A stretch of DNA of 64,000 bases from contig CAZBKB010000003.1 in assembly GCA_964492425.1 (NCBI GenBank), positions 6,682 to 70,681 of the forward strand, written 5' to 3'. How positions within the stretch are numbered: the first letter of the stretch is position 1; each line of letters begins with the position of its first letter. A program made the translations under genes and the position numbers. This DNA is from an uncultured Gammaproteobacteria bacterium (GTDB lineage Bacteria > Patescibacteriota > Microgenomatia > Curtissbacterales > GWA2-41-24). Below, in pieces: positions 5,978 to 51,192 of the stretch. The notes beneath the pieces are model-generated. The model made no database searches and was not told the DNA's origin. It saw only the letters and a list, made by a program, of their open reading frames with translations.

Positions 5978-6712
5978 GTGGACGACAGTCAAAAAAATAT
6001 AAAAAGCACGGAAGAAAAATCAAAAAAGACGGAAAAATCCGAAAATTCTGACCGAGGCGACAAAACCGCATCAACTATACCGTCAGAAGTCATAGATCAG
6101 TCCAAAAATACAGACAATACTAATGTTATCAATCAGGTCGATGATAATGAAAAATCCAAACCCCGCCCAGTAGACACTCCACCATTAAAAGGTGCCCACT
6201 GGTATGTTGTCCATACATATTCAGGCCACGAAGCAAAAGTCGCCGCAACTTTAAAACAACGGATTGAATCCCAAAAACTCAGCGACAAAATACTCGACAT
6301 TCTGGTTCCAACACAAGACAAAATAGAAATTAAAGAAGGCAAAAAATCTACAGTCAAAGAAAAGATTTTTCCCGGCTACTTACTTATTAATATGGTACTG
6401 GACGATAACACCTGGCTTGCGGTAAGAACCACACCGGGAATCACCGGCTTTATCGGCACTGCAAACAAACCGACACCACTTCCTGAGGCAGAAGTAGAAA
6501 CAATCAAACGCTTCATGAACTTGGAAGCTCCAAAGTTCAAGACGGCTTTCTCGCAGGGCGAAGCCGTAAAAATTACCGATGGACCCTTTGCCGAATTCTT
6601 GGGAACAATTTCTGAAATAGATGAAGAAAAAGGCAAACTTAAAATACTAGTTTCTATCTTCGGGCGCGAAACACCTGTTGAGCTTGATTTTCTACAAGTT
6701 GCAAAACTTTAA
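5978..6712 (+). CDS. nusG: Transcription antitermination factor NusG with a K/E/D-rich N-terminal extension of about 70 aa
   Basis: NGN domain ([15 protein letters not shown]) and C-terminal KOW ([22 protein letters not shown]). Conserved position secE-nusG-rplK. Confidence 0.9.
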
Positions 6713-6713
6713 T

Positions 6714-6992
6714 ATGGAAACCTTAAGAATCGCAGATAAAGTTTTGACAGTCTCGCAAGTTGCAGAAAAAATCCATATCGCTGCAGCCGATTTATCAGCC
6801 CTTGTGGATGCAGGAGTATCTCATAAAAAAGTCATGCCGCAAGCAATAATGGTGACACACGCAGCAATAAAAGTTGCAGAAAAAATAGACGGAATAACCG
6901 CCGAAATAGAAGACGCAGCACGTGACCTGCAAAATACGGTAGACAAAAAGGTCCAAAGGGGTAAAAGAATAGAGATAAGAATAGTAAAATAA
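6714..6992 (+). CDS. Hypothetical small protein between nusG and rplK
   Basis: The ATG at 6714 lies just after the nusG stop. The listed ORF 6678..6992 overlaps nusG in another frame. No recognisable domain. Confidence 0.35.
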   Translation: METLRIADKVLTVSQVAEKIHIAAADLSALVDAGVSHKKVMPQAIMVTHAAIKVAEKIDGITAEIEDAARDLQNTVDKKVQRGKRIEIRIVK

Positions 6993-6996
6993 AGAT

Positions 6997-7887
6997 GTGC
7001 CCAACATCAATAAAATCAAGCGCACGATAAAAAGGAATCGCTTAAAAATATTACTACTCGCCATTGCAGTCAGTACCATCACCTTCTTCTCATTAAATGA
7101 AATCTCACCAAACCAAATTGCCACAGAGCAAAATAAAACGCCATCTCCTAACCCAAACCAAATAACCACAATTACCGAACCTGATTCAAATATCCAAAAT
7201 CTTCTGCAAACAGAAATTCAACAACTTACAGGCACTTACAATATTGTCATAAAAGACCTAAAAACAAACCAGATTTACTCCATAGGACAAAACCAAAAAA
7301 TCCCCAGCGCCAGTATTTATAAACTTGCCGTTATGTACAAGGCTTTCGATGCGTTAGAAAAAGGAGAACTAAAAAAAAATCAGATTCTCTCAAACGGCCT
7401 AACTGTTGAAAAAGCACTGGAGCAAATGATAACTATATCCGATAACGAATCCGCCCTCATATTGGCAGAAAAACTAGGCTGGAAAAACATAAACTATTTT
7501 CTTCAAAGTGAAGGGGTTACAGGTTTTAACCTGATGATTAAAGATTACCCAGAAACAACTGCCAGGGCCACCGCAGATCTCCTTGAGAGAATTTACAGAA
7601 AAACCGCAGTCTCCGCCCAAGCATCGCGTGAAATGCTAGAACTACTGCTTGCTCAGCAAAAAAATGACCGAATCCCATCCCTTCTGCCACCAAATATCAA
7701 AGTAGCACATAAAACCGGAGAATTGGACAACTTCCGCCATGATGCCGGCATTGTCTTTGGCAAAAGAAGTGATTACATATTTGTATTTTTAACAGAAACA
7801 CCAGTCCCCGAAGATGCATACACAAACATTGCCAATCTCTCAAAAACCACGTTCGATGCACTGGAAAATCCCAATACCTTGAAATAA
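6997..7887 (+). CDS. Class A beta-lactamase-like serine hydrolase (membrane-anchored/secreted)
   Basis: N-terminal TM. SxxK (SASIYK), SDN (ISDNES) and KTG (HKTGEL) motifs in the canonical order and spacing. Confidence 0.65.
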   Translation: MPNINKIKRTIKRNRLKILLLAIAVSTITFFSLNEISPNQIATEQNKTPSPNPNQITTITEPDSNIQNLLQTEIQQLTGTYNIVIKDLKTNQIYSIGQNQKIPSASIYKLAVMYKAFDALEKGELKKNQILSNGLTVEKALEQMITISDNESALILAEKLGWKNINYFLQSEGVTGFNLMIKDYPETTARATADLLERIYRKTAVSAQASREMLELLLAQQKNDRIPSLLPPNIKVAHKTGELDNFRHDAGIVFGKRSDYIFVFLTETPVPEDAYTNIANLSKTTFDALENPNTLK

Positions 7888-8005: not shown

Positions 8006-8431
8006 ATGACAAAAAAAGTTAAAACCTTCATTAAGTTAACCCTCAAAGGCGGACAAGCAACTGCCGCCCCCCCAGTTGGAACGGCACTCTCACCTCAAGG
8101 TATACCTATAATGGACTTTGTCAAAGCTTTTAACGACAAAACAAAAGATCAAATGGGGACTCCCCTGCCTGTTGTAATTACAGTTTTTGAAGACAGGACT
8201 TTCGCTTTTATTGTAAAAAAACCTCCTGTTGCAGTCCTTATTAAAAAAGCTCTGAACATTGAAAAAGGTGCCCAAACTACAAGCAAGCAGACTGTTGGCA
8301 AACTATCAATCAACCAGGTAAAAAAAATCGCTGAAGAAAAAATGCCGGACTTAAACACCAAAAACATAGATGCTGCAACAAGAATAGTCCAAGGAACCGC
8401 AAGATCCATGGGGGTAGAAACCGAAATTTAA
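8006..8431 (+). CDS. rplK: 50S ribosomal protein L11
   Basis: MTKKVKTFIKLTLKGGQATAAPPVGTALSPQGI... signature. 141 aa. Confidence 0.9.
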   Translation: MTKKVKTFIKLTLKGGQATAAPPVGTALSPQGIPIMDFVKAFNDKTKDQMGTPLPVVITVFEDRTFAFIVKKPPVAVLIKKALNIEKGAQTTSKQTVGKLSINQVKKIAEEKMPDLNTKNIDAATRIVQGTARSMGVETEI

Positions 8432-8463: not shown

Positions 8464-9435
8464 ATGGGCACCACTCGCATAAAAGTTATCGATCTTTCTT
8501 CAAGTCAGCAGGAAATTAAAACTGCAAGAAAGCACGCGGAAAAACTTTCTGGCGCAGTAAAAATTAAAAAGGATAAAACGAAAGCAGAAACAATACCTGC
8601 AAGCGAAATTCCAACCCAGGAAATACAAGCGACCTTGGCCCAAACACAAGAAATGCCGGTTGAACAAAAAGACTCAATCCCCGACACAAAAGTAAAGGAG
8701 GGAAAAAATCAACCAACCCCAATAGTTAAAAAAACAAAAGAGTCACCGCTCAAAAAACACGCACGCCACAAGGGCGCAAAATACCAAAAGGCAGCAGCTT
8801 TAATAGAGCCAAAAGACTATTCTCCAAAGGAAGCTTTCAAACTGCTACCCATGACATCTTTCACCAAATTCGACCCAACAGTGGAGGTACACCTGGGCCT
8901 TTCTGAAAAAAATATCAAAGTTACAGTCAATATGCCCCATTTTAAGGAAAAAAAGGACCATCACCCAAAATACTTAATTTTTGCCGACCAAAAAACTCTC
9001 CCCAAAGAAGCACAAGTAATCTGGGGTAATGAAAAAACAATTGCTGAGGTAGAAAAAGGATCCCTCAAAGCCGGTCGTGATTTTACAGAAGTTATTGCAT
9101 CTCCACAATACATGCCAAAACTTGCAAAAATCGCCAAAATCCTTGGACCAAAAGGTTTAATGCCAAACCCCAAAAACGAAACTGTTTCAGAAAATGTTGA
9201 AAAATTTTTCGATGGGTCTGCAAGTTTAGCCGGAACAACCGTAAAAACCGATCCAACAGCTCCAGTTATTCACACGAAAATCGGTAAACTTTCCCAGAAA
9301 ACAACCGAACTGGAAGCCAACTTCAAAGCACTCATAACTGCAATCGGCACCACAAAAATTAAAAAAGCAACGCTTACAACCTCGATGGGCCCACCAATCA
9401 GACTCGACCCTAATAAATTAACCGCTGCCCAATAG
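8464..9435 (+). CDS. rplA: 50S ribosomal protein L1 with an N-terminal K/E/T-rich extension of about 95 aa
   Basis: The L1 core begins near KHARHKGAKYQKAAALIEPKDYSPKEAFKLL...FDPTVEVHLGL. No Met is near the core start, so the extension appears to be translated. Confidence 0.85.
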   Translation: MGTTRIKVIDLSSSQQEIKTARKHAEKLSGAVKIKKDKTKAETIPASEIPTQEIQATLAQTQEMPVEQKDSIPDTKVKEGKNQPTPIVKKTKESPLKKHARHKGAKYQKAAALIEPKDYSPKEAFKLLPMTSFTKFDPTVEVHLGLSEKNIKVTVNMPHFKEKKDHHPKYLIFADQKTLPKEAQVIWGNEKTIAEVEKGSLKAGRDFTEVIASPQYMPKLAKIAKILGPKGLMPNPKNETVSENVEKFFDGSASLAGTTVKTDPTAPVIHTKIGKLSQKTTELEANFKALITAIGTTKIKKATLTTSMGPPIRLDPNKLTAAQ

Positions 9436-9537
9436 CCCAACGCCTACTTGTCCTACATCTACCGAAGTATCAATCTTGGAAATTTATAAAGCCACATAAA
9501 CAAGAAATTACCTAATTAATTACCCCAGCCACGACAC

Positions 9538-9567
9538 TTGACAACCCCCCCCCCACAATGATAGACT
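9538..9567 (+). promoter_or_regulatory. Sigma70-like promoter candidate for the inserted operon: TTGACA - 18 nt spacer containing C10 - TAGACT
   Basis: TTGACA at 9538-9543, TAGACT at 9562-9567, about 40 nt upstream of the 9607 start. The spacer contains a 10-nt homopolymeric C run in an otherwise low-GC genome. Confidence 0.4.
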
Positions 9568-9606
9568 ATGGGTCTTGAATTTCTGCCCAAATTTTTATAG
9601 GTAAAA

Positions 9607-12201
9607 ATGCCTAAAGAACAGCCACCGCTAAATTTAGAAGCCTTACAGGCAAAAGAGAGAAAACTGCAAGGCAGCCTGCTAAAGGCCGATCGCGTTGAGC
9701 TTACTTATACAGCCCGAATATACGCACCACATCTTGAGGAAGCAGTCAGAAAATCACCCGAAAAAGCAAGGTCTTGGGTCAACAAAGGCCAATTACTTCA
9801 GCCCCAGCACATTGCACTTGAAGCAAACATTCGGGTTGCCGATATTCGCGGAGCAATAAGGGACAATGCGATCCCGAAAATAGTGCAAAGCCTTGGCAAG
9901 ACCCAGGAGCAGATAAGAACACAAGACGAATCACCTGAACAAATAAGCATGTACGCCAGCCACCTTGAAGAATTAAAACGGGCAGCAACCTATGTCGAAG
10001 TCACCAAAGACAGAGTTATAGCAGGGCTTCTTACAAGCGGTGACCTAGACGAGGTCAAGGCTTACTACAGCAGCATAGAAAGCCTCCAGCAAACCGACCC
10101 CGAGCTTGCCCGCGCAAAAGAGGTCTACTTGGCAAAATTACAGAAGCAAGAAAGACAAGGCAGAACTACTTTTATCCCCCCAATTGAAAAACGAACTGGC
10201 AACGAACAAGAACCCCTAGCCTCTTTGAAAATCGACCGCAGCGTAAGTACAGTCCAAGTTGGTGGAAATGAGGTGGTTACACTGACCAAGGCTCAAATGG
10301 CCATCTTTGCAAGGCTGGCAAGGGAAACTAATGAAGCGGTGAAGCCGAAAACCCTGCGCGGTGTTCTAAAGAACGCGGGAGTCAGTCCTAAAACAAGCAT
10401 CACACAGGTCATTAATGAAATAAGAGCAAAAATTGAAGTAGATCCAAATGCACCTAAAATCTTAACCATGACTGGTTCAAGAAACGGTGCGAAATATGCC
10501 ATTAATGCCAATGTTGAATTTATCGGCAAATCAGAACGGTCAAGATTATCCAAAGAAGGATGGAAAATCTTCGAGATCGAGATGCCAGACGGTCAAGTTG
10601 TCAAAATTCAGGGTCAAAGATATGCCGATACCTTAAAACACTTGCTTCCGGCAACAATCGATAACCCAACAGGAACAGAAAGTCTATCAATGCAACTTTA
10701 TGGTAAAGCAGACAGAAGTAGTAGGAGCAGAGTTGCAAGCAAGGTAGCGAAGGTTAAAAGTGTACTCAAACCATACAATTGGACTGTAATTCAGCCTGTC
10801 CCACACGAAGATCTCAAATTTAAAAAGGGCGTAAAAAGCACTGAGCAACAAATCCCAAACGCCAAATATTATCTCGAAAAAATCACACCAGACGGTGTAC
10901 AAGCCAAACCGGCTACCTTTCCGCCAACCCCACCCGTTGAAACTCCGCCCGTACAAATTCCACCTGTAGAGTTTGGTCTTCGCCAAAGCCACCTAGACAC
11001 ACTCGACTACATCAGACAAAACCCAGACGGCCGGATGCAAACCGCAATCGCACTGCTTCGTACAACCAAGAAAGGCATTCCCCACACAAGGCCTCAAGCT
11101 GCTTTTGCAGCCAATCGCGCACTTTGGCATCTTTTCAACAGGAACCAAATGGGTATCGCAACAGAGGCAGAACAAGCTTTAAAAACCAACATCGAACAGG
11201 CACTTGGCTTAAAAGACGTTGAGGCAAAAGCCAAATTCAAAGAAATCGTAACCAACTTTTTCAGTTCAGATAGAAAGCAAGTTGAGGAAGTGCTTAAAAG
11301 CAAGGAAGTTAAAGAACCCATCAAAGAATTACCAACGGAAGCCGAAGTAGCACTTCTGGTAACTATCTACAAGCTAAGAAGAGACATTATTAAAAAATAC
11401 GAGCTGCCCCAACTCCCCCAAGATATAATCGAAGAGGCGTTAAAAGCATTCCCGGGAAGGCTAGATCTCGCAGCTGACGAGATAGTGAGCTTGCGCAATA
11501 GCGCCTACGACAAATTTGCAAGCATTGTCCAAAGCGACCAGTTAAACGAACTCTACGATCAAGCACCAGAAAGTACCAAGAAACTTATTATATATTTCAT
11601 GGAAATTGACCCTGAGACGCAACTTCAAGCACTCAAAGAAGCTTTACTTGCACCAACAGAAGCAGGATGGAAAGTGGTATCAGGCAGAGTTCAAGAATAC
11701 TGGAAAGGATTAGACGGCCATGAAATCAAAAGTGCCCAAACAGGGATAAATCCAATCCCAGATCCCGATGGGAAACCCGAAAATCAAAAACATACAGATT
11801 TGGCCGACTTAAGCACATCAAGTGTTTCCCCAGATAACCAAACAAACTCGATAACTGAAAAACCAAAGGTCTACAGCCTTGAGCGCCATGATCCCCAACT
11901 AAGGCAAAGAATACAGGGAATTCTGGACCAACTCGAATCAATAGCTGCCGACAGAAGTCGGACTCTCACGGTTCCGCAACTCGGTAATCTTGGCATCAAA
12001 GCAAAATTCGCCCAAAAAGTAGAGAGGGAGGGTTATATCCAAAGTAAAAAAGGACGAGACCATCATCCGATATTTACAGTCCATGAAGTAGCAATTCTTC
12101 TTTATTTAAAAGATTTTGCAAACGGTTTAAGCAAAAGAGACAAAAAACAAATAAGACATTTCGTCCAAGAAGAGTTGGCAAAACGAGATGAACAAAACTA
12201 A
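9607..12201 (+). CDS. Large (864 aa) protein with an internal OmpR/PhoB-type winged-helix DNA-binding domain. First gene of a three-gene insertion in the rplA-rplJ junction.
   Basis: Residues around 225-300 (VVTLTKAQMAIFARLARETNEAVKPKTLRGVLK...ITQVINEIRAKIEVDPNAPKILTMTGSRNGAKYAI) fit the trans_reg_C pattern. A Pro-rich linker PPTPPVETPPVQIPPVE follows. The rest is mostly helical with no other recognisable domain. Confidence 0.5.
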   Translation: MPKEQPPLNLEALQAKERKLQGSLLKADRVELTYTARIYAPHLEEAVRKSPEKARSWVNKGQLLQPQHIALEANIRVADIRGAIRDNAIPKIVQSLGKTQEQIRTQDESPEQISMYASHLEELKRAATYVEVTKDRVIAGLLTSGDLDEVKAYYSSIESLQQTDPELARAKEVYLAKLQKQERQGRTTFIPPIEKRTGNEQEPLASLKIDRSVSTVQVGGNEVVTLTKAQMAIFARLARETNEAVKPKTLRGVLKNAGVSPKTSITQVINEIRAKIEVDPNAPKILTMTGSRNGAKYAINANVEFIGKSERSRLSKEGWKIFEIEMPDGQVVKIQGQRYADTLKHLLPATIDNPTGTESLSMQLYGKADRSSRSRVASKVAKVKSVLKPYNWTVIQPVPHEDLKFKKGVKSTEQQIPNAKYYLEKITPDGVQAKPATFPPTPPVETPPVQIPPVEFGLRQSHLDTLDYIRQNPDGRMQTAIALLRTTKKGIPHTRPQAAFAANRALWHLFNRNQMGIATEAEQALKTNIEQALGLKDVEAKAKFKEIVTNFFSSDRKQVEEVLKSKEVKEPIKELPTEAEVALLVTIYKLRRDIIKKYELPQLPQDIIEEALKAFPGRLDLAADEIVSLRNSAYDKFASIVQSDQLNELYDQAPESTKKLIIYFMEIDPETQLQALKEALLAPTEAGWKVVSGRVQEYWKGLDGHEIKSAQTGINPIPDPDGKPENQKHTDLADLSTSSVSPDNQTNSITEKPKVYSLERHDPQLRQRIQGILDQLESIAADRSRTLTVPQLGNLGIKAKFAQKVEREGYIQSKKGRDHHPIFTVHEVAILLYLKDFANGLSKRDKKQIRHFVQEELAKRDEQN

Positions 12202-12225
12202 GATAATTAAAACAATTCAAAATAA

Positions 12226-13695
12226 ATGAGCGAGAGAAAACCACTTTTTATTCAGGAAGATATTGTAAATGCCCACAAGTACGTGGAGCGAGTAAAAGGA
12301 CGCGTTGATGCAGGCCAACTTACAGACGAACATCTGCAGAGTGCCCAAGCATATCTTGCGGGAGTAGAATTTTACGAGCCCCACCGACCACATCAGCTGT
12401 CAAGACAAACAATACGTTCAAAAGAAGAGGGAGAAAAGTTTCTACCAAAAATCTTAGTTAATCCAGAAACAAAAAGGGTCGAAATACCAAAATACGAAAT
12501 CGCCACAAAAATACCAGGAAAAGTCGAATGGGTACTATTTACTTACCTTGCACAAAATCCAAATAAAGACCTTCCTAAACAGATTTTAATCGCGGTTGCC
12601 CAACAAGCCGGTTCTAGTGCAAATGATATTAGAGATTTAATCTATCGCTTAAGAAAGAGTTTGGAACCGGATTCTAAAAACCCACTAATAATTACTACCA
12701 CCAAAATAGATAGCAAGTATTTCTATAGCTTAAACGCCAAAGTAGAATTTGTAGAAGATGAAAAAGAAAAGGAAAAGAAAAAAGTAACAAAACCAAAAGA
12801 AACACAGGAAGAAAGGCGAAGCTATACCATTAATTTATCAGAACGATCCCTAACCGATCAAGTGACGGGCACAGTGTTGGATATTATCGACGATCTGGAT
12901 TTTGTTATTTTAGCTAAAATTGCCCAGTCACAACAAAAAGGCTTTCTCGGAGAAACAATTGCCAGAATCTGTCGTGAAGCAGGCGATAAAAAAGGACCGT
13001 CACACGGAGTCATCAAAAGATTAAGGAGTATCTTTAATGACACTGAAGATACTCCAAAAATCATCACTCAAACTGGCAAAACGAGAGGCACAAGATACTT
13101 TCTAAATGCGGACGTTGAGCTCATAAGCGATGAAAAGACAATTCAAGAAGTTTCATCCACCCAACCGGAAACAGACGAGAAACAGCCTGTTGCAAGCCCA
13201 GACCAGCAAGCCGCTGGCTCACCAAGGATTGATTCAGCACAACGAACCTACGTACCATACAAAGCAACAGAAGATGAAAAGAGATCCAGTGCGGAAAACC
13301 GTACATTAAAAGCAGTTATCTTGGCAATTCACCCAGTAAACAACACAATAGACTTTGAAACGCTGCAGAAAGGGTTATTTTCCCCGGATTCGATTTATCA
13401 AACACCAACCGGTAAATGGATCACTATAAAACAGGCAGATGAAATAATTGAGGTTTTTGACAGAGCTGTTGCTAAAATTCGCGAAGAGGCAGCAATACCT
13501 GCACTTCGCCAAAACTGGACCGACGGGGACAAACAAATCTGGGAAATACTGAACGAATCGATAAACCGTGTGTCCTCCGGAAATGTTGCAGAGTATTCCA
13601 AAAAACTTAAAAGTAAAATTAGACAGTCTCAAAATAGGTACTACAAGCAACCCCGCCCACAAAACGGTAACACCGTTTTTAGGATTAAAATATGA
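12226..13695 (+). CDS. 489-aa protein with two OmpR/PhoB-type winged-helix domains. Second gene of the insertion.
   Basis: Two trans_reg_C-like segments: KVEWVLFTYLAQNPNKDLPKQILIAVA...IRDLIYRLRKSLEPDSKNPLIITTTKIDSKYFY and VILAKIAQSQQKGFLGETIARICREAG...GVIKRLRSIFNDTEDTPKIITQTGKTRGTRYFL. Starts 24 nt after the upstream gene. Its stop overlaps the next start (ATGA). Confidence 0.5.
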   Translation: MSERKPLFIQEDIVNAHKYVERVKGRVDAGQLTDEHLQSAQAYLAGVEFYEPHRPHQLSRQTIRSKEEGEKFLPKILVNPETKRVEIPKYEIATKIPGKVEWVLFTYLAQNPNKDLPKQILIAVAQQAGSSANDIRDLIYRLRKSLEPDSKNPLIITTTKIDSKYFYSLNAKVEFVEDEKEKEKKKVTKPKETQEERRSYTINLSERSLTDQVTGTVLDIIDDLDFVILAKIAQSQQKGFLGETIARICREAGDKKGPSHGVIKRLRSIFNDTEDTPKIITQTGKTRGTRYFLNADVELISDEKTIQEVSSTQPETDEKQPVASPDQQAAGSPRIDSAQRTYVPYKATEDEKRSSAENRTLKAVILAIHPVNNTIDFETLQKGLFSPDSIYQTPTGKWITIKQADEIIEVFDRAVAKIREEAAIPALRQNWTDGDKQIWEILNESINRVSSGNVAEYSKKLKSKIRQSQNRYYKQPRPQNGNTVFRIKI

Positions 13696-15230
13696 AGGAA
13701 CACGAGCCTGTAATTAAACTAATAATCGAAGAGAAGTTCTCGCCCGGAGCAATAGAAGCTCTAATGGCTAATTACCGGGATGCCCAACTGGCTTTTTTAG
13801 AGCTTATAGATAATGCCATTGACAACCGTATTGAGGGCAGTGCCAATCCCCTGCAGGTTCGTGTTCGGGTTTCCAGAGACGAGCTCTCTGTCCATAATCA
13901 GGGTGGTGAGGGCTTAGACCTTTCCGGTCTTACAGACTTTTTCAACTGGGGCCATTCCGAAAAATCCGGGCGCATCGGCATTTGGGGTGTAGGCGGTAAA
14001 GGGGCTGCCGGCTATCTCGGCCAAAGCTTGGAATTAGTTTGCTCTGCCAAAGCTTCTCAACAGGAATACAAAGTAGCGGATCCAAACTGGACAAGAAGAG
14101 TAGAAGGCGAAACAAAACGACTCACACCGGAAGTGAAAAAGGCGCATACCGAAGACGGCTATTTCAGGATCAGAATAACCAATCTGACCAAAGAAGTTAA
14201 TGCGGCTGCTCTTACAACGAAACTTGGAGATATCTACCGCCCCCTGCTTTTAACCAATAGGGTCAAGATTAAAGTTAATGGTAAAGACGTTGAACCTCTT
14301 CAAATTCGCTATGTTGAAAACGATCCAAAATTAAAGCCTGATAATTTGCTTGTTCAAACACGCTTTGGGGACCATTTTGAGTTAAAAGTTGGGATAATGG
14401 AAGAAGGCCAAATCCTTAAACCGGGTATCCGATGCTATTATCATGGGCGTTTAATAGAAGCGGAGCATTTTTTCGGTCACCCAACTCCAGCCCAAATGCC
14501 CGAAGCGGCAAGACTAATTGGTGAGGTAGACTTCGATTTCGTCCCGGTAACGCCGAATAAATCCAGCTTCATACACTCCTCACCTCAATGGATTCATGCT
14601 TCAAAAAGAATGCAGGAGGTACTAACTCCATGGAATGATAAATTGCAAGGTATAAAAATAGACCACAGGACACCAGTTGAAAACTACGAAAAAGAGTTAG
14701 CCAGAAAAGCAAAAAGGGTACTCGAGCACGTCCTTGCAACCACCGGGATAATCACCAAAACTATGCTGCCGGGAGAATCCGAAGGCCGCAGACCGCCAGG
14801 CCCAAGTGGTAAGCCAAAGGTTAAAACCGGCAGAACAAGTTCAAGCCGTGGTCCCCAGGAAGGTCAGACAGCTCCTGTTCTCGACGCAACCATCGGTGAA
14901 ATGAAACGCTGGGGTGCTTTGCACGAGATAGATGTTGCTCCAATGGGAAATAACGGTAGAAGAAGTGAAGCAATAGACGAAAAAGGTCGGAAAATTTTAA
15001 AAATTAACTCCGACCATCCTCTATATCAAGCCGAAAAAAAGGCTGGAGACGACGCCCTGGGTCTTTATCAGACGGAAACCGCCATTTTAAAAATTGCCGA
15101 GCTTGCAACACAAGGCAAATCAATTGAGGAATACATCGAGCTTGTTGACAATCTTTCTCGAGAATGTGGAGCTGTTTATAATGCTCGACTGGCCCAAAGA
15201 GATAGAAAAAACGGGAGAAGAAAAAAATAA
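13692..15230 (+). CDS. MORC/Hsp90-like GHKL (Bergerat-fold) ATPase. Third gene of the insertion.
   Basis: N-terminal GHKL motifs. N-box FLELIDNAIDN. G1-like VHNQGGEGLD. G2 box GIWGVGGKGAAGYLG (MORC-type GxYGxGxK). 4-nt overlap with the upstream gene. Confidence 0.6.
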   Translation: MKEHEPVIKLIIEEKFSPGAIEALMANYRDAQLAFLELIDNAIDNRIEGSANPLQVRVRVSRDELSVHNQGGEGLDLSGLTDFFNWGHSEKSGRIGIWGVGGKGAAGYLGQSLELVCSAKASQQEYKVADPNWTRRVEGETKRLTPEVKKAHTEDGYFRIRITNLTKEVNAAALTTKLGDIYRPLLLTNRVKIKVNGKDVEPLQIRYVENDPKLKPDNLLVQTRFGDHFELKVGIMEEGQILKPGIRCYYHGRLIEAEHFFGHPTPAQMPEAARLIGEVDFDFVPVTPNKSSFIHSSPQWIHASKRMQEVLTPWNDKLQGIKIDHRTPVENYEKELARKAKRVLEHVLATTGIITKTMLPGESEGRRPPGPSGKPKVKTGRTSSSRGPQEGQTAPVLDATIGEMKRWGALHEIDVAPMGNNGRRSEAIDEKGRKILKINSDHPLYQAEKKAGDDALGLYQTETAILKIAELATQGKSIEEYIELVDNLSRECGAVYNARLAQRDRKNGRRKK

Positions 15231-15299
15231 TAATTGCCAGTACATTGACAATCGACATTCATTATTGCTATATTTCCCCTAGTCCAAAGACCGTAGCTA

Positions 15300-15514
15300 T
15301 TCACTTCGTTCAGAATAAACTCGAGCAAAGTGAGGTTAAATTTCAAAGGTCACTCAGGGTCTACCCTGAGGAGTACACGATGAAGGGCTACGCAGGCGAA
15401 GCCCCGTTTGACGGGGCGAAGCGCTCTTAAGCTTTCCTGTCCTTCGTAGTTTTAACGAATAAGGAATGCGAGGGAGGAAAAAAAGGTCATAAAATTCAAA
15501 TTTTTTGACCATCC
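15300..15514 (+). promoter_or_regulatory. Structured 5' leader upstream of rplJ (candidate L10 autoregulatory leader)
   Basis: About 310 nt noncoding before rplJ, with stable hairpins CTCAGGGT-CT-ACCCTGAG (15353-15370) and GCCCCGT-TTG-ACGGGGC (15401-15417). The position matches the known rplJ leader in other bacteria. The L10-binding structure itself was not verified. Confidence 0.3.
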
Positions 15515-15539
15515 AACGTCTCTTTGGAGACGTTTTTTT
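15515..15539 (+). terminator. Intrinsic terminator/attenuator hairpin immediately 5' of the rplJ start codon
   Basis: AACGTCTC-TTTG-GAGACGTT followed by TTTTT, ending 1 nt before the rplJ ATG at 15540. Confidence 0.5.
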
Positions 15540-16091
15540 ATGAAAAAACAAACTAAATCTGCACGCGAAATAAAAGAAGATAAAGTTACCGCGTTTAGTG
15601 AAAAAATAGAAAAAGCAAAAACTGTAACTTTTGCCGACTACCGTGGTTTAACCGCAAATCAGCTGACAGAATTAAGAGCAAAAGTAAAAAACGTCGGTGG
15701 TGAATTTTTAGTCGAAAAAAATAATTTGATCAAGATCTCCTTAAAATCTACAAAACACCAAATTCCATCGGGCCAAGATCAGTTGCTAGTAGGCCCCACA
15801 GCCGCAATCGTTGCATATGACGATGAAATTGCACCAATAAGAGAAATCGCCGAAAGTAACAAAAACTTTGGTCTTCCAATTTTTAAGTTCGGCTTTTTTA
15901 ATGAAAACTTTTTAACTTCAGAAAATGTCGAAAAACTATCCAAAATACCAAGTAGGGACGCGCTTCTTCAAAAAATGGTTGCCTCTCTCAACTCACCGCT
16001 TTATGGAATAGTTTCGGTTCTTTCTGCAAATCTCAAAAACCTTGTTTACACGCTAAGCGCAATAAAAACAAGAAAGGAAACTAACACCTAA
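15540..16091 (+). CDS. rplJ: 50S ribosomal protein L10
   Basis: TFADYRGLTANQLTELRAKV motif. 183 aa. Upstream of rplL. Confidence 0.85.
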   Translation: MKKQTKSAREIKEDKVTAFSEKIEKAKTVTFADYRGLTANQLTELRAKVKNVGGEFLVEKNNLIKISLKSTKHQIPSGQDQLLVGPTAAIVAYDDEIAPIREIAESNKNFGLPIFKFGFFNENFLTSENVEKLSKIPSRDALLQKMVASLNSPLYGIVSVLSANLKNLVYTLSAIKTRKETNT

Positions 16092-16163: not shown

Positions 16164-16745
16164 ATGGCAGACAACAATCAAAAAGCAGCCGGTGCTGCAG
16201 TCGATGCAGAGGAAGCCGCAAAAGAAGCACAAGATGCTGCACAAAAGGCTGAAAAGGCAGCAGATGAGGCCAGGGAGGTAAAAGAGGAGGTAAAAGAAGT
16301 CGCACAAAAGGTTGAAGAGAAAAAAGTGGAATCAAAAGAAGAAAAACCACAAGTAAAAGTATCTGCAAATTTAGAAAAGATTATCAAATCAATTGAGGGA
16401 CTTTCTATTTTGGAATTAGCAGATTTAGTAAAAGCTCTTGAGGAAAAGTTTGGAGTTTCGGCAGCAGTACCGACAGCAGCAATAGCAGCAGGCACACCGG
16501 CAGCAGGCACTGAGCAGGAAGGAAGTGAACAAACAACTTTCAATGTAATTTTAGCAGACGGCGGTGCAAACAAAATTTCAGTGATTAAAGCTGTTCGTGA
16601 GCTTGTCCCAACACTTGGCCTTGCAGAAGCAAAAACTTTAGTCGACACCGCTCCAAAAACAGTTCTTGAAGGAGTTAACAAGGAAAACGCAAATGAAGCA
16701 AAAACTAAGCTTGAAGCAGTTGGCGCGAAAGTCGAGCTAAAGTAA
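16164..16745 (+). CDS. rplL: 50S ribosomal protein L7/L12 with an A/E/K-rich N-terminal extension of about 68 aa
   Basis: GGAGGTGA RBS 8 nt upstream of the [66 protein letters not shown]...[12 protein letters not shown]. Confidence 0.9.
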
Positions 16746-44849: not shown

Positions 44850-47800
44850 TTATATTTTTTTACTACTATAAACAATCGTAGCCCCTCCACCATTTTCGTA
44901 GTACTCAAGCTTTATTACATGAAGCCCGGCTGTCATACTTTTGGTAACTTTATATGTAGTTGGTGGTTGGTCTATCCACTTGTCTATTACCAATTGCCCA
45001 TCGATAAAGAGCCTTATACCATCGTCTGCAGTAACTGTAAACTCATAAGTCCCTGCCTCAATGGTTTCTGTTTTGCCAAATCGTGCGCTAAAGTGGTCGT
45101 TTGGTATCGCCGGGTCTGGGGATCCATTACCCCAGTTGAAATTTATACTTAATTCTTGCCTAATAATCTTGGCAATTCCCGACAGACTAATATTGTCGAA
45201 ATATTCTGCTACGAAAAAATCGCCGCTTGGCGGTGTATCTATTTTGGCATAAGAAAATTTTGCAACTGCCCCACCGCTGTTTTCGTAATATTCAACTTCA
45301 ATGTCATGCTCTCCGGCTGTTACTGCTTTATCAACCGTATAAGTTGTCGGTGCATGATCGTTCCACTGGTCAAGTATCATAACGTTATCCAGATAAACCC
45401 TAATCCCATCATCCGAAACCATCGTAAATCGGTAATTCGCTGCCTCAAAAGTTTTCCTGGCTTTCCATCTGGCTATGAAGTGATCAGCATTAATGGCTGC
45501 GTCCGGAGAAACACCATCCCAATCAAAATTAATTTCTGCGTCATTCCTCACCAAATTGGCAGCTGTCGTCGGTATAGTTGGAGATGAACCATTACCCGCA
45601 TTCCAATAATACCCTTGGTAATCGCCAGTCGGTGGTGGAGGCGGTGGGAGTGAACCAGTTTTTAAGTAACCAAATTGCAAAACTGCCCCACCGGTTTTTT
45701 CATAATATTCTACCTTGACCTCATGCATACCCGCAGTTATATCTTTAGAAACTGTATAAGTAGTTGCCGCCTGGTCTATCCACTTATCCAGGATTAATAC
45801 ATTATCAATATATACCCGCACACCGTCATCAGCCGTTACTTTAAATTCGTAAGTACCTGCTTCAAAATTGTCATTTTTAACATATCGTGCCGAAAAATTG
45901 TCAGCTCCAATTAAAGGATCCGGCGAGCCATCGTCTCCCCAATCAAAGTTAATAGCTGGTTCATTTTGCTGGACTACCGAAGTACCCGATAACGTTATGT
46001 TATTAAAATATTGAGCCAGAAAGACACCGGCTGCCGGTATCGGCGCAGGCGCTTCGTCTATAATTTCCCAAAAAAGTTTTGCAACCGCCCCCCCGGTATT
46101 TTCAAAATATTCCATTTTAACATCATGTTCTCCGGCTGTTAAAGTAATATCCGCACTATATGTCGTAGGTGGCTGGTTTACCCACTTATTGATTATCAAA
46201 TTACCGTCAACATAAATTCTCACACCGTCATCTGCAGTGGTCGTAAACTTATATTTTCCAGCCACAAAATATTGTTTTTTTGTCCAACGCACCGAAAACT
46301 TATCAGTCCCGATACCGGCAGCCGGAGATTTACTTCCCCAGTTAAAATCAACAACCGTATCTTGTCTGGTCAATTTTGGGACTCCATACAAAGTCATATT
46401 TGTAAAATATTCACCCTTAAAGGGTGGCATTTCCAAATAATTGGCAACATAAGTCGTATCTGCTGCTGGCGTCGAAATTCTACGAGAAATCGCACCACCG
46501 TCCGACCAGTTGGCAAATTGGTAATTTTTACCACCTAAAACTTGAATAAGTGGCGCCTTAATTTCACGCTCGAAACTAACAACGCCGGTTACCGTTTTTG
46601 GTGTACCAATGAGCGTACCGTCTAAAAATAATTGCATGCCTCCAGGGCTTGTCAAAAGGGTAAAGTTGGAAGTTACCGGATATACACTCACAGATTTTGA
46701 AGAAACGAGGTTATCGTAATCACGTGCACTGACTTTAATTTCAAACCAGCTTTCTGCAGAATCCTCACCAGTCATCGGGACGGTAAACGACCCGCTTGTC
46801 CCGACTATTGGACCCAAAAATGGATGTATATGGGTCTGGTGGTGAAGTAAAATTTCAGTCGATACTGCGCTTGATGGCAAGTCAATTCCACGTCCGTCTA
46901 CTGCCGATGCTATCCAAAATATTGTATCGCCCGCTTTGTATTTGGCCCCATCTGAAGGCGCTCCAATAGATATAGTCGGTGGTACGCCAACATTAATTAT
47001 GATAGGTACAGATTGTGCACTGTTCACACCATCAGAAACTGTAAGTTGAACTGTAAAACTCCCCAGGCTAAAAATTTTAGTAGGGTTTGCCAGAATACTT
47101 TGTGTTCCATCTCCAAAATCCCAAAGATACGTTAGAGAGTCACCGTCTGGATCATACGTCCCACTGCTAGAAAAATGTACAGCAAGCGGCGCATCGTCAC
47201 TTGTAGTCACATCTGCAGAAGAATTGGCAATCGGTGTCTGGTTGCTTACAGAATAAGTTATCTTATATAACCGTCCTGGGAAATACGTTATGTAGTACAA
47301 AGAACCGTCTTGCGCCACCTTAAAATCAACAACACTGCCAGCATTCAGATCAAAATCGGCAACACTCACATAATTCCCGCTTGAATCAAGATTTAACCTT
47401 TTAATAAATCCTCCGGCGTAATCTCCAAAGAAGAGATCGCCCTTATACTCGGCAGGAAACATATTCCCTTGGTAAACTGGCCCCAAAGCAACTGCCCGGC
47501 TTGCACCATTATGGTTATAGGCATAAATTGGCTGAATATAAGGGCAACTGGATACACATGGCCCTTCGACAATCGGCCAACCGTAATTTCCACCTTTTTG
47601 AACTAAATCAATTTCTTCCCATGTTGCATCACCTACATCACCAACATAAAGTCGACCGCTATCAGGATCAAAACTAAGCCTCCATGGGTTTCTAAATCCA
47701 TATGCCCATATTGCGCCGTACTTACCCGCCTGTCCATAAAACGGGTTATCGACAGGAACAGTTCCATCACTATTAATCCTTAAAATCTTGCCGTGTGGGT

Positions 47801-48338
47801 TGGATAAGTCCTGTGGATTGCTGGTATCACCGTTATCTCCAACAGCAAAATAAAGTTTTCCGTCCGGACCAAATCCCAAACTTCCACCTACATGAAATTG
47901 CAGTGAAGGCGAATTTGTCCTATAAATTTCAACAGCATTTATTCCAACATCCGCCGAAGCATCAAGCCTTACAATCTTGTTCAATAAGTCATTTTTGGAA
48001 GTATAGTAAAAATACGCATAGTGATTACTGCTAAAATCCGGATCAAAAGCTACCCCAATCAACCCTCTGTCTCCGGAAGCCTCTGCATTTAAATCAACAA
48101 ACGGCGTTTGAAGTAAACTACCATTTTTGTAAATTTTTACTTTTCCTGCCCTCTCAAGTACAAAAATTCTGGAATCCGGTGCAATCGCAAATCCAGTTGG
48201 TCCATCAAGCCCGCTTCCAATAACTTGTGTTGTCTGAAAATTTACAGGTGGAGCTGCATATGTAAACTGCCGGGCTGCAAGAAATATAACGATAAAAAGA
48301 AAAATAAACCCCACACACAAACTCAATATTTTTCTCAT
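44850..48338 (-). CDS. Large secreted protein: glucose/sorbosone dehydrogenase-like beta-propeller + PKD domain + five PA14 domains
   Basis: GSDH-like motifs (GLIGVAFDPDF, HVGGSLGFGPDGKLYFAVGDNGD, GKILRINSDGTVPVDNPF, YGFRNPWRLSFDP, NYGWP). PKD YLWDFGDGTQS. Five PA14-like repeats (..FSVRWTK..ADDGVRIYVDGNLIINKW..). Confidence 0.7.
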   Translation of the reverse strand: MRKILSLCVGFIFLFIVIFLAARQFTYAAPPVNFQTTQVIGSGLDGPTGFAIAPDSRIFVLERAGKVKIYKNGSLLQTPFVDLNAEASGDRGLIGVAFDPDFSSNHYAYFYYTSKNDLLNKIVRLDASADVGINAVEIYRTNSPSLQFHVGGSLGFGPDGKLYFAVGDNGDTSNPQDLSNPHGKILRINSDGTVPVDNPFYGQAGKYGAIWAYGFRNPWRLSFDPDSGRLYVGDVGDATWEEIDLVQKGGNYGWPIVEGPCVSSCPYIQPIYAYNHNGASRAVALGPVYQGNMFPAEYKGDLFFGDYAGGFIKRLNLDSSGNYVSVADFDLNAGSVVDFKVAQDGSLYYITYFPGRLYKITYSVSNQTPIANSSADVTTSDDAPLAVHFSSSGTYDPDGDSLTYLWDFGDGTQSILANPTKIFSLGSFTVQLTVSDGVNSAQSVPIIINVGVPPTISIGAPSDGAKYKAGDTIFWIASAVDGRGIDLPSSAVSTEILLHHQTHIHPFLGPIVGTSGSFTVPMTGEDSAESWFEIKVSARDYDNLVSSKSVSVYPVTSNFTLLTSPGGMQLFLDGTLIGTPKTVTGVVSFEREIKAPLIQVLGGKNYQFANWSDGGAISRRISTPAADTTYVANYLEMPPFKGEYFTNMTLYGVPKLTRQDTVVDFNWGSKSPAAGIGTDKFSVRWTKKQYFVAGKYKFTTTADDGVRIYVDGNLIINKWVNQPPTTYSADITLTAGEHDVKMEYFENTGGAVAKLFWEIIDEAPAPIPAAGVFLAQYFNNITLSGTSVVQQNEPAINFDWGDDGSPDPLIGADNFSARYVKNDNFEAGTYEFKVTADDGVRVYIDNVLILDKWIDQAATTYTVSKDITAGMHEVKVEYYEKTGGAVLQFGYLKTGSLPPPPPPTGDYQGYYWNAGNGSSPTIPTTAANLVRNDAEINFDWDGVSPDAAINADHFIARWKARKTFEAANYRFTMVSDDGIRVYLDNVMILDQWNDHAPTTYTVDKAVTAGEHDIEVEYYENSGGAVAKFSYAKIDTPPSGDFFVAEYFDNISLSGIAKIIRQELSINFNWGNGSPDPAIPNDHFSARFGKTETIEAGTYEFTVTADDGIRLFIDGQLVIDKWIDQPPTTYKVTKSMTAGLHVIKLEYYENGGGATIVYSSKKI

Positions 48339-48466: not shown

Positions 48467-49492
48467 TTACAGGACATTTAAATCATGGATTCTATAGTAT
48501 TTTTCAAGAATGGATTGGGCTTTTTTCTCCCCCAAATCACTAAAAATTGCACTCTCACCGCCAAAACCAACCCACCAATTTACCCCAACAATACTTTCCT
48601 GTTCAGATATCAAAGAGAGTACCCGCTCAATCCATCTTGACTGTTCTTCTTCATCCATCTCTCCATGAATGTGAAGGATTGGAGCTCCGAGTTCTCCAAG
48701 TATGATCTGTGCTTTGGTCGAATTTTTAAGTTCAACGATTTGGTCCACAAAATCCTCCGGCTTTCTAGTATAATGGTCAACAACAATTAAATTGTCCATT
48801 TCAGAAAGTGTTTTTTTATCAAATACTAACTTTGCCACATCCAAATTCATGGAAGTGTAATTTGTATTTACCTTTTTGCCGGTCTTTGCAAATTCCTCAT
48901 CCATCACTCGCCTCTCGCTGGTCATAAAAGTGCGAAAACCATCAATATCAGTATTATATCTTGGGTCACCCGGTCCACCGTTCTCACATTCCGGGCATGC
49001 TGTAAAAATGTCTCCATCTTCAAATAAATCAGCATTACTGCCAATAAACTGTTTTAATTTCTCAATATGCCCATCACGATTTAAATTCTTTTCGTAACCG
49101 AACCAACCTTCCCAGGACGAAAAGTTTCCTCGAAACCATACTTTCAAATTATATTGTCTGGCAAAGTTCACCCATCGTTTTAAATAAGGGACAAATTCCT
49201 GATCGTATGGGGTATCCACTGCAACATGGGTAGCACCAGTTTTAGAAATCAGTCCCATCTGCCTGTTTATTTCTAAATCAAAAGATTGTTCTTTGAACTT
49301 TATCCTCGCCTTGTCCCTGGAATCCTTCATCGTATCTATCGATTTAACCCGCCAAACACGCCCCGAGACAGGAAATTCCAATTGCTCACTATCTTTTTTA
49401 CCGGTAGCGTTAAAAAGAGATGAAAAAATTATTAATGCCCCAAAGACCAATATTGCAGAAATAACAATCTTCTTAATATTTACTAGATTCAC
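48467..49492 (-). CDS. Membrane-anchored putative TIM-barrel glycoside hydrolase-like protein
   Basis: N-terminal TM. Composition and length resemble GH5/GH113-like barrels, but no firm motif. Confidence 0.35.
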   Translation of the reverse strand: MNLVNIKKIVISAILVFGALIIFSSLFNATGKKDSEQLEFPVSGRVWRVKSIDTMKDSRDKARIKFKEQSFDLEINRQMGLISKTGATHVAVDTPYDQEFVPYLKRWVNFARQYNLKVWFRGNFSSWEGWFGYEKNLNRDGHIEKLKQFIGSNADLFEDGDIFTACPECENGGPGDPRYNTDIDGFRTFMTSERRVMDEEFAKTGKKVNTNYTSMNLDVAKLVFDKKTLSEMDNLIVVDHYTRKPEDFVDQIVELKNSTKAQIILGELGAPILHIHGEMDEEEQSRWIERVLSLISEQESIVGVNWWVGFGGESAIFSDLGEKKAQSILEKYYRIHDLNVL

Positions 49493-51192
49493 AGTTTCTT
49501 GTATATTTTTAGATTCCCCTCACTATAAACAACCTCAAAATTATTGTATAGCAGTTCTTTATTTTCCAAAAGTTCACCTAAAGCATCACCCGAAAGATTC
49601 TCATCAAGAACCACCCAGGTTGCATGTCGGGTTGGATCTGTTAGTGAATTCCTCCACCACTTTCTACTCCCTTCGTATATAAAATTGTTATAGGAAAGTT
49701 TAGTTTGAAACATGAAATTTTCGTGCCTATGAGCACTTACTAAAATTAAACCTCCGTCATAATTCTCGCGAAACCACTTTGAATACTCAAATTCAAGATA
49801 CTCGGCCTTTTTAGGAAGAGAAAAAGTCAATAAAAATGGTGTTGCAAATAATGTATAAAGCTGGAATATAATTAGCCCAAACACAATTCCGGTTAATAAT
49901 TTATTCCTGCCGTAAACGAGCCCAATCATAACTGCCATAAGTGGTAATGTAATTATTCCATAGCGAATATTAGAACTTGACCCAAAATTTAAATTCTTAT
50001 TCAAAATATTGGCAAAAGTTACCATTGGTGTTTCGATTTTCGGGATTAACCCTTTCGAATATCCCACAATTAAGAAACCGAATACGCAAAAGGTCATTAT
50101 AAAAATCGGGGTTAATAAAACATCTAATTTTCGCCTAACAACGTTTAGCAAATTTAGAGCACATAAGTACAAGAAGGCAATTGCAGCCAGAAGACTGATA
50201 ATAATACCATTTATAAAAAGCATAGCTGTGGAATAAATTTTTAAAGCATCGAATAATTTTATATTCCTATCAGGTTCAGAAACTGCCCCGACACCCTCTA
50301 CTGTAACCACTGGATCTACGGCAATGACCAGCTTTTTACCTGTATATAAATTTAACCAGTATATCGGATCCTTAAAAATTAAAAATGAATAAAATGACCA
50401 CAATAAAATACCAAAAACAGCCAAAGTTACAAAGAAAATAACTACACCCTGTATTTTCTGTTTGTTTTTAAGTGAATAAATTGCAGCCGAAACTGCCCCA
50501 ACACTCAATGTGGCAGCACCAAATAGTGCATAACCCTCATAACGGGTCAATGTTGTTAAAATTACAAACACTGCAGCATACAACAGATGCAAAATATTTT
50601 TGGTCTTTGCCCATTTGGTTAAAAAGTAAACAATCATGACCAGTGTGAAAAGGAAAAAAGATTCACTCATAGCCATAGTTTGCAAAAAAAGTATATTAAT
50701 ATTTGTGACATACACAAACCAGGCTAAAATTCCGCCAAACCTGTTTTTCGTGATTATATAAACAGTCTTGTAGAGAAACACCGCACTTATAATAAATGCA
50801 ATCATTGAAGGAATTGCCCCAGCCAGCCCGCTATGCCATAAGAATTTATTCCAAATAAATGGCAAAAATAATACCTGCGGAAATGGAAGCCAAATACCTC
50901 CAAGCTGAGCAAAGCCAGGTGTTAATGAATCAATAATTTTTCTTGCAATATTTAGACGTGCAATTGCATCATAATCTGCCAGATTCTTATTCCCCGAAAA
51001 ATAAAACACCAAAAAAGAAATAATGCTTATAAAAATTGTTGCCAGAATAAGCCAAAAATCAAACTTATTGTAAAAAAAATCCTTTTTAAAACCGTTTTTT
51101 TGCCTCTCTTTTCTCTCACCAATAATCGAATTCGCACTGGCAAGTGCTCCATGATTCGGCAATCTTGGTGCAATCACTTTATTCCCTTTCAA
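49489..51192 (-). CDS. GT-C superfamily glycosyltransferase (PMT/ArnT-like, GT39/83-type), about 12 TM
   Basis: Multi-TM architecture with a periplasmic loop. The 4-nt overlaps with the GT2 gene upstream and the TIM-barrel protein gene downstream suggest an operon. Confidence 0.5.
   Translation of the reverse strand: MKGNKVIAPRLPNHGALASANSIIGERKERQKNGFKKDFFYNKFDFWLILATIFISIISFLVFYFSGNKNLADYDAIARLNIARKIIDSLTPGFAQLGGIWLPFPQVLFLPFIWNKFLWHSGLAGAIPSMIAFIISAVFLYKTVYIITKNRFGGILAWFVYVTNINILFLQTMAMSESFFLFTLVMIVYFLTKWAKTKNILHLLYAAVFVILTTLTRYEGYALFGAATLSVGAVSAAIYSLKNKQKIQGVVIFFVTLAVFGILLWSFYSFLIFKDPIYWLNLYTGKKLVIAVDPVVTVEGVGAVSEPDRNIKLFDALKIYSTAMLFINGIIISLLAAIAFLYLCALNLLNVVRRKLDVLLTPIFIMTFCVFGFLIVGYSKGLIPKIETPMVTFANILNKNLNFGSSSNIRYGIITLPLMAVMIGLVYGRNKLLTGIVFGLIIFQLYTLFATPFLLTFSLPKKAEYLEFEYSKWFRENYDGGLILVSAHRHENFMFQTKLSYNNFIYEGSRKWWRNSLTDPTRHATWVVLDENLSGDALGELLENKELLYNNFEVVYSEGNLKIYKKL

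Follow-up and report, generated by a model that had tools for sequence, protein, structure and literature searches.

The MORC ATPases of prokaryotes and the related paraMORCs were described in 2008 in operons that resemble restriction-modification (RM) systems, where they accompany superfamily II (SFII) helicases, nucleases and methylases (PMC2292703). This assignment to restriction-like operons, drawn from comparative genomics, is the sole role proposed for the prokaryotic proteins, whose biochemistry is essentially unstudied. The later literature on MORC-related proteins of prokaryotes is sparse, comprising a proposal of two-component-system-like HEF_HK/paraMORC elements and a GHKL-Shedu fusion. 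Here we analyze a three-gene cassette that encodes a MORC-type ATPase and two proteins with winged helix-turn-helix (wHTH) domains, located between the ribosomal protein genes rplA and rplJ in a 64,000-nucleotide stretch (hereafter, the window) of contig CAZBKB010000003.1 from an uncultured bacterium of the Curtissbacterales. The cassette combines a divergent MORC clade with a non-canonical motif II and a new class of multi-wHTH partners, with no linked nuclease. An initial interpretation of the DNA made without database searches (the sequence-only reading) had considered the arrangement undescribed, and full-text searches on MORC in the Candidate Phyla Radiation (CPR)/Patescibacteria and on HATPase_c_3 with Trans_reg_C indeed returned no published description.

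The cassette spans 5.6 kb and consists of three open reading frames (ORFs): ORF1 (9607-12201; 864 amino acids), ORF2 (12226-13695; 489 amino acids) and ORF3 (13692-15230; 512 amino acids). All three are encoded on the + strand, as are the ribosomal genes on either side, which are rplK (8006-8431) and rplA (8464-9435; L1 with an N-terminal extension; Pfam Ribosomal_L1, E 6e-24) to the left, and rplJ (15540-16091; L10; Pfam Ribosomal_L10, E 2.5e-20) and rplL (16164-16745) to the right. ORF1 and ORF2 are separated by 24 nt, and ORF2 and ORF3 overlap by 4 nt (ATGA). The coordinates thus agree with the co-orientation and tight spacing given in the sequence-only reading.

Two syntenic relatives of the window, L089 and L090, were found through their L1 homologues (58-59 % identity). 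The whole neighbourhood is common to the three loci, from Peptidase_M24 to secE-nusG-small ORF-beta-lactamase-like-rplK-rplA on the 5' side and rplJ-rplL-CarboxypepD_reg-cupredoxin-HTH_17 on the 3' side, except that the cassette is absent from the relatives and their rplA-rplJ spacer measures only 470-570 nt. An independent assembly from the European Nucleotide Archive, L088, displays the identical gene order with the same insertion at 99.98 % identity over 20 kb, and a chimeric assembly is therefore unlikely. A metagenome scan with L1 yielded one distant locus only, with ordinary rplA-rplJ adjacency. The cassette is a lineage-specific insertion between rplA and rplJ, acquired by this lineage, and the claim of an inserted three-gene module is upheld by the comparison.

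The spacer of L089 and L090 contains, in order, a promoter-like site, a conserved, highly acidic ORF of 31-32 amino acids, a terminator hairpin, the rplJ promoter and the leader. Homology of the window to these relatives picks up at position ~15232, right past the stop codon of ORF3, and takes in both promoter boxes (-35 and extended -10) and the start of the leader, AGTCCAAAGACCGTAG. The cassette has therefore replaced the small acidic ORF and the terminator, leaving the rplJ control region intact. The left junction is not mappable because the intergenic DNA is too diverged. The acidic ORF (MIDDTQ[VI].DDEE...; 9195-9293 in L089 and 9120-9215 in L090), which is absent from the window, carries a strong Shine-Dalgarno sequence (GGAGGTGAT) and a terminator hairpin of its own.

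No gene for a transposase, integrase or recombinase was found between rplA and rplJ, as had been noted from the letters of the sequence, and the search for flanking direct or inverted repeats (target-site duplications, terminal inverted repeats) gave nothing above chance-level short matches. Assignment to an insertion sequence, transposon or integrative element was consequently rejected. Compositional foreignness was likewise considered and rejected, as a local rise in GC at the cassette vanishes in a gene-by-gene comparison. The cassette genes have a GC of 0.40-0.455, where the mean for the genes of the window is 0.42 +/- 0.04; this value and their GC at third codon positions (GC3) lie within the host range, so that composition is silent on the origin of the cassette.

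ORF3 comprises a GHKL-S5 module (residues 1-352), a conserved linker of low confidence (residues 353-410) and a C-terminal domain of ~100 amino acids (residues 411-512). An exact look-up of its sequence returned no record. The profile of the ORF3 family (alignment A1, 62 sequences) matches MORC3 and MORC4 in the PDB with E values of 5e-12 to 4e-11 across both the GHKL and the S5 parts, followed by SMCHD1 (E 2e-3). The order of a GHKL (Bergerat) domain and an S5-fold transducer domain is that of the MORC family. A motif in the S5 domain, G-h-x-h-h-p-x-x-R-h-l, separates MORCs from paraMORCs (Iyer, Abhiman & Aravind 2008, PMC2292703), and is present in ORF3 as G245-I-R-C-Y-Y-H-G-R253-L-I, which aligns with GIMMYHRNRLI of MORC3; G245 and R253 are invariant across the 62 sequences. 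The C-terminal domain gave nothing significant in profile searches of the PDB and Pfam, and a zincin-like fold suspected there was discarded, since the metal ligands are absent. Membership in the histidine kinases was ruled out by the lack of a DHp/HisKA domain beside HATPase_c.

In MORC2, binding and hydrolysis of Mg-ATP involve Glu35, Asn39, Gly98/101/103, Lys105 and Lys427, and Asp68 of motif II bonds the adenine N6 (PMC5811534). The equivalent residues of motifs I and III and the S5 lysine, namely N41, G96, G99, G101, K103 and K290 in ORF3, are invariant in the family, and position 37 is occupied by glutamate in 48 of the 62 sequences and by aspartate in the other 14. The D-x-G-x-G signature of motif II is not preserved: its aspartate position corresponds to Q70 in ORF3, with G72, G74 and L75 present. 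Family members have Q, E, R, I, H or V at this position, and relatives from the Chloroflexota have V, I or R. The aspartate is missing from all of the about 90 loci in Microgenomates, Chloroflexota and Dormibacterota, where the motif reads x-G-G-x-G-[LM] (residues 68-75 of ORF3), and the clade retains every other catalytic residue. Such a clade-wide change suggests an altered nucleotide recognition. Because of the missing aspartate, ORF3 is assigned to a MORC-like clade that is divergent, rather than to the canonical MORCs.

The partner proteins carry wHTH domains of the OmpR/PhoB type. ORF2, which we term the class B partner, contains a helical hairpin (residues 7-49), two wHTH units (wHTH1, residues 73-178; wHTH2, residues 198-302) and a conserved C-terminal domain (residues ~341-489; nucleotides 13246-13692). 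ORF1, the class A partner, begins with a domain that includes a helical hairpin paralogous to the ORF2 N-terminus (residues 121-166); the paralogy with ORF2 extends over residues 121-314. This domain is followed by an OmpR-type wHTH (residues ~205-305; Trans_reg_C, E 1.6e-4, and a match to the MtrA DNA-binding domain), a divergent wHTH (residues ~306-440; hhalign against the wHTH units, Prob 95-96 %, E ~1e-8 for query residues 306-440), a helical domain of ~250 amino acids without a profile match (residues ~456-700) and a C-terminal MerR/GlnR-like HTH domain (residues ~746-864), which matches GlnR (7tec) with an E value of 5.8e-5. The wHTH matches of ORF1 and ORF2 in Pfam, NCBIfam and PHROGs are weak but consistent, those in PHROGs being limited to a weak match of the ORF1 wHTH to phrog_731.

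Both partners have the Trans_reg_C winged-helix effector domain, and no Response_reg match was obtained for either at E <= 0.1, which rules out that they are OmpR/PhoB response regulators. The AlphaFold2 model displays the helical hairpin, two wHTH units and the C-terminal domain, and no Rossmann-like receiver. The profile searches therefore bear out the domain calls made from the sequence alone, of OmpR/PhoB-type winged helices without a receiver and a MORC-like GHKL ATPase. Neither the ORF2 C-terminal domain nor residues 456-700 of ORF1 gave significant profile matches in the PDB or Pfam; a match to EAD10 (E 0.014-0.058) among the searches of unassigned domains was too weak to be retained. 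No signature of a nuclease, helicase, methylase or other enzyme was detected in any ORF segment in these searches. Tandem repeats that might be targets of the wHTH arrays were sought in the window, and nothing convincing was found.

The ORF3 family is small, with only 65 clusters among 5.8 billion proteins. Its close members (>36 % identity) occur in Microgenomates among species-representative genomes, and the named records are Curtissbacteria and Levybacteria; the nearest named relatives of the L1 protein of the window are also Curtissbacteria. The ORF2 family numbers 95 representatives in 1.84 billion proteins, and ORF1 has a single full-length homologue (P0191, 55 %) among the 5.8 billion, its domains occurring modularly in other partner proteins. 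These proteins are assembled from 1-5 wHTH units, an N-terminal domain that they share and C-terminal domains specific to each class, with fusions and fissions between loci. At the cut-off used, each contains one or two wHTH units, and up to five of a divergent subtype are found in some family members.

About 13 distinct loci of Microgenomates were examined, and in most of them a gene for a protein with the ORF2 C-terminal domain lies directly 5' of the MORC gene and often overlaps it, a count in which the matches in L003, L012 and L016 are partial or weaker. An ORF1-type protein is also encoded in most loci, upstream or downstream. Because L094 has only a class B protein and MORC, these two genes constitute the core of the system. 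The location of the cassette varies between genomes. The closest cassette, L091, follows pheST-hicBA-DUF5674, and others lie between a peptidyl-prolyl isomerase gene and nrdR/RNR (L001), beside a XerC-like integrase and bipA (L003), near PIN and Y1 transposase genes (L006) or beside msrB (L094). The site is stable inside sub-lineages, being the same in L009 and L010 and in L001 and L011. More distant relatives of ORF3, about 30 % identical, occur widely as stand-alone genes in Chloroflexota and Dormibacterota. The genes upstream of the Chloroflexota homologues are heterogeneous (AbiEii, PIN, DUF6036 and others), and a search for a conserved partner gene found none, in loci whose high GC makes simple ORF calling unreliable. 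The Curtissbacteria genome MFBU01 holds two paralogues (L008/L017), a 60 %-identical MORC with wHTH partners and a 33 %-identical stand-alone copy of the Chloroflexota type.

A comparison of the window with L091, domain by domain, reveals that divergence is concentrated in the DNA-binding modules. The MORC proteins are 84 % identical overall (82.5-87 % by domain, linker included). In ORF2, the hairpin and the C-terminal domain retain 71 % and 57 % identity, while wHTH1 and wHTH2 retain 17 % and 38 %. In ORF1, the values are 55-67 % for the main domains, 33-40 % for the linkers and 29 % for the C-terminal HTH. The presumed DNA-reading modules are accordingly the fast or swapped parts, and the ATPase and the putative interaction modules are the conserved ones. 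Fast-diverging recognition parts are typical of specificity subunits in conflict systems.

We propose, with about an even chance of being right, that the cassette is an accessory DNA-targeting system of three genes, built on the two-gene core, in which a MORC clamp is recruited by wHTH adaptors, with conflict or silencing as the probable purpose. ORF2, and probably ORF1 as well, would recognize DNA by their OmpR-type winged-helix arrays, in ORF1 with the MerR-like HTH in addition. The conserved C-terminal domain of ORF2, which is predicted to be translationally coupled to ORF3, would connect recognition to the ATPase. ORF3 would then undergo nucleotide-driven N-terminal dimerization, as anticipated for a GHKL protein similar to MORC, MutL and Hsp90, and the dimer, with the help of the C-terminal domain of ORF3, would clamp the bound DNA. 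The target would be occluded, compacted or silenced rather than cleaved, in a system without its own nuclease, and would most likely be invading or otherwise 'conflict' DNA. The clamp is modelled on precedent: MORC2 dimerizes upon ATP binding (PMC5811534) and compacts DNA (PMC12216690), and the MORC-1 protein of Caenorhabditis elegans entraps and condenses DNA, as cited in PMC8277788.

Several observations weigh against this proposal. The cassette has no linked nuclease, helicase or methylase, unlike about 70 % of prokaryotic MORC operons (PMC2292703). Canonical ATP binding is uncertain because the whole clade lacks the motif II aspartate. GC and GC3 provide no compositional evidence of a recent foreign origin, the distant Chloroflexota homologues are without partner proteins, and residues 456-700 of ORF1 and the C-terminal domains of ORF2 and ORF3, to which no function is assigned, could hide an effector. 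A search of PADLOC-DB v2 with the three proteins at E <= 0.1 gave 0 families, and the window has no defence island around the cassette. The defence or DNA-surveillance role suggested in the sequence-only reading is plausible: the sporadic distribution, the variable location and the hyper-divergent DNA-binding domains are compatible with it, although no PADLOC match, no recognizable effector and no clear defence island in the window support it. Some cassettes at other sites adjoin HicAB, PIN, Y1 transposase or XerC-like integrase genes, in keeping with an accessory, conflict-like character.

A more specific version of the adaptor-clamp proposal is tentative and clearly the less probable of the two. 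The cassette would then be a nuclease-free prokaryotic silencing system, in which the diversifying wHTH arrays act as programmable DNA-recognition adaptors that load a MORC clamp with a non-canonical pocket via the coupling domain, and thereby repress the target. If this holds, the cassette would be the bacterial equivalent of the eukaryotic silencing complexes of transcription factors and MORC, present in the ultra-small bacteria of the CPR, and could serve as a minimal and tractable model of them.

The strongest competing explanation, which we regard as improbable, is a classical restriction-like or abortive-infection defence, in which MORC would operate with an unrecognized nuclease or toxin contained in ORF1 or ORF2 or encoded elsewhere. 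Prokaryotic MORCs and paraMORCs mostly reside in RM-like operons (PMC2292703), three domains of the cassette proteins are still uncharacterized in profile searches, and some homologues adjoin toxin-antitoxin or AbiEii genes. However, the profile searches of every unassigned domain against the PDB and Pfam revealed no nuclease, helicase or methylase, the PADLOC match is absent, and the suspected zincin-like fold of ORF3 is devoid of metal ligands. No SFII helicase, nuclease or DNA methylase is associated with the cassette in the window, in L001-L012, in L091 or in L094.

The sequence-only reading had also considered a regulator coupled to ribosomal protein transcription. The wHTH proteins would then bind the control regions of rplKA and rplJL, with remodelling by the ATPase, in a system dedicated to the ribosomal protein operon or to growth rate. 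The cassette is indeed embedded among the ribosomal genes on the same strand, a terminator is predicted on neither side of it, and OmpR-type wHTH domains are classical in transcription factors. Against this, homologous cassettes occupy unrelated loci in every other genome examined (pheST-hicAB, nrdR/RNR, bipA and msrB among them), the fully syntenic relatives manage without one, and the rplJ promoter, leader and attenuator are kept unchanged in kind. A dedicated regulator is thus very unlikely, and the position in the ribosomal operon appears incidental, given the cassettes located elsewhere and the relatives that lack it. The position does provide the cassette with a strong transcriptional context.

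Equally improbable is a remnant of a maintenance, replication or partition module left by an integrated mobile element. Recombinase genes, terminal inverted repeats and target-site duplications are absent here, and the MORC family was not found in 50,697 phage and 72,556 plasmid records, with only two distant partial matches in IMG/VR. The stable placement in sub-lineages and the three ORFs, all intact and conserved, likewise argue against a remnant. The pairing of a HATPase_c-type fold with OmpR/PhoB-type effector domains, and the TCS-like elements already proposed as relatives of paraMORCs, might recall a two-component-like pair in which the GHKL protein is a kinase that phosphorylates the DNA-binding proteins, a possibility we consider the most remote.

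A comparison with described systems places the cassette closest to the prokaryotic MORCs and paraMORCs, with which it shares the GHKL-S5 module, the MORC-specific S5 motif, a sporadic distribution and a variable genomic context. It differs from them in the lack of an SFII helicase, nuclease or methylase, whose place is taken by OmpR-type wHTH arrays and a novel, putative C-terminal coupling domain, in the absence of the motif II aspartate, and in the confinement of the cassette group to Microgenomates as far as seen, with stand-alone relatives at ~30 % in Chloroflexota and Dormibacterota. The eukaryotic MORC2/3/4 and SMCHD1 provide the best sequence and structure matches to ORF3, and would also share the proposed mode of action, that of a dimer that clamps DNA in a nucleotide-dependent manner, compacts or silences it, and relies for recruitment on separate adaptors that bind DNA or chromatin. 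By contrast, ORF3 has no CW, chromo or coiled-coil domains and ends in another C-terminal domain, its identity to these proteins is only 15-20 %, and recruitment in the cassette would use separately encoded wHTH proteins.

The partner proteins stand apart from ToxR, CadC, SARP/AfsR and EmbR, in which OmpR/PhoB domains occur outside response regulators. They contain at least two tandem wHTH units per polypeptide (up to five in relatives), lack a transmembrane or periplasmic sensor and a BTAD or NB-ARC domain, are fused at both ends to domains specific to the family, and are encoded with MORC. MukBEF and Wadjet/JetABCD are DNA-surveillance systems based on SMC proteins, with wHTH (KITE) accessory subunits and an ATP-driven, DNA-entrapping dimer encoded in one operon; they are accessory systems directed against foreign DNA. 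The cassette may resemble them by analogy, as an ATP-driven DNA-entrapping dimer with winged-helix accessories in one operon, but the ATPase folds are unrelated (GHKL versus ABC/SMC) and the cassette has neither a kleisin nor a Toprim nuclease.

Because MORC is paired here with sequence-reading adaptors and no recognizable nuclease, the cassette could reveal the activity of MORC alone, whether it clamps, compacts or silences DNA, and the means of its recruitment. The CPR bacteria, whose small genomes carry few recognized defence systems, gain with it a candidate system for conflict or regulation, and the clade-wide absence of the adenine-contacting aspartate poses a clear biochemical question on the use of nucleotides in the GHKL fold. 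The finding is of value for the MORC-adaptor system rather than for where this is located. The location is a curiosity, showing that even the rplKAJL string accepts insertions provided that both halves retain a promoter and a leader of their own.

Putative signals for transcription lie at both ends of the cassette. A TG-extended promoter-like element, TTGACA-N18-TAGACT, precedes ORF1 on the + strand at 9538-9567, where one had been noted from the sequence alone; it is a consensus match only, at 10/12 positions. The promoter-like site of rplJ (TTGACA-N18-TATATT, TG-extended; 15245-15274, + strand) is stronger, at 11/12 in the consensus scan, and starts 14 nt past the ORF3 stop codon. Terminators are predicted neither on the + strand between rplA and ORF1 nor after ORF3. 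Read-through from rplKA into ORF1 is therefore possible, and transcripts may also continue into the rplJ leader, since the ancestral terminator is missing; the attenuator of the leader itself is still present.

This leader (15276-15539, + strand), recognized by folding and by comparison with the relatives, is about 270 nt long and has a minimum free energy of -91 kcal/mol, with a z score of -4.99 versus shuffled sequence. It ends in a terminator- or attenuator-like hairpin with a U-run at 15515-15534 (+ strand), directly before the rplJ ATG, so that the structured leader and attenuator reported in the sequence-only reading are preserved. The promoter and the conserved 5' motif AGTCCAAAGACCGTAG are kept in L089 and L090, which are ~60 %-diverged relatives (promoter and leader region at 15245-15539 in the window, ~9420-9516 in L089 and ~9290-9438 in L090), and the leaders of all three loci terminate in a hairpin and U-run. 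The Rfam model L10_leader matches neither the leader of the window, at the gathering threshold or at E <= 10, nor those of the relatives. The rplJ leader of Microgenomates may thus be an undescribed variant of the L10 leader.

The secE-nusG-rplKAJL string, presented in the sequence-only reading as one of the most conserved in bacteria, is less inviolate here than was assumed, as it is already interrupted between nusG (5978-6712, + strand) and rplK in this lineage. The interval (6714-7887) contains a small ORF (67-92 amino acids) and a class-A-like gene of the beta-lactamase family (6997-7887; PF13354, E 2e-42), and both are kept in all syntenic relatives (L088-L090). The interruption is a second, older break of the string. 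NusG (5978-6712), L1 (8464-9435) and L7/L12 (16164-16745) carry low-complexity N-terminal extensions of ~70-130 amino acids before the start of the Pfam domain. Further downstream, two large genes lie on the - strand at 44850-48338 and 55282-59994. One of the products (1162 amino acids) combines GSDH, PKD and four PA14 domains. The other (1570 amino acids) consists of fused glycosyltransferase domains (GT2 x2-3 plus GT4) and belongs to a run of overlapping genes at 49489-59994; the region looks like a cell-surface glycan locus.

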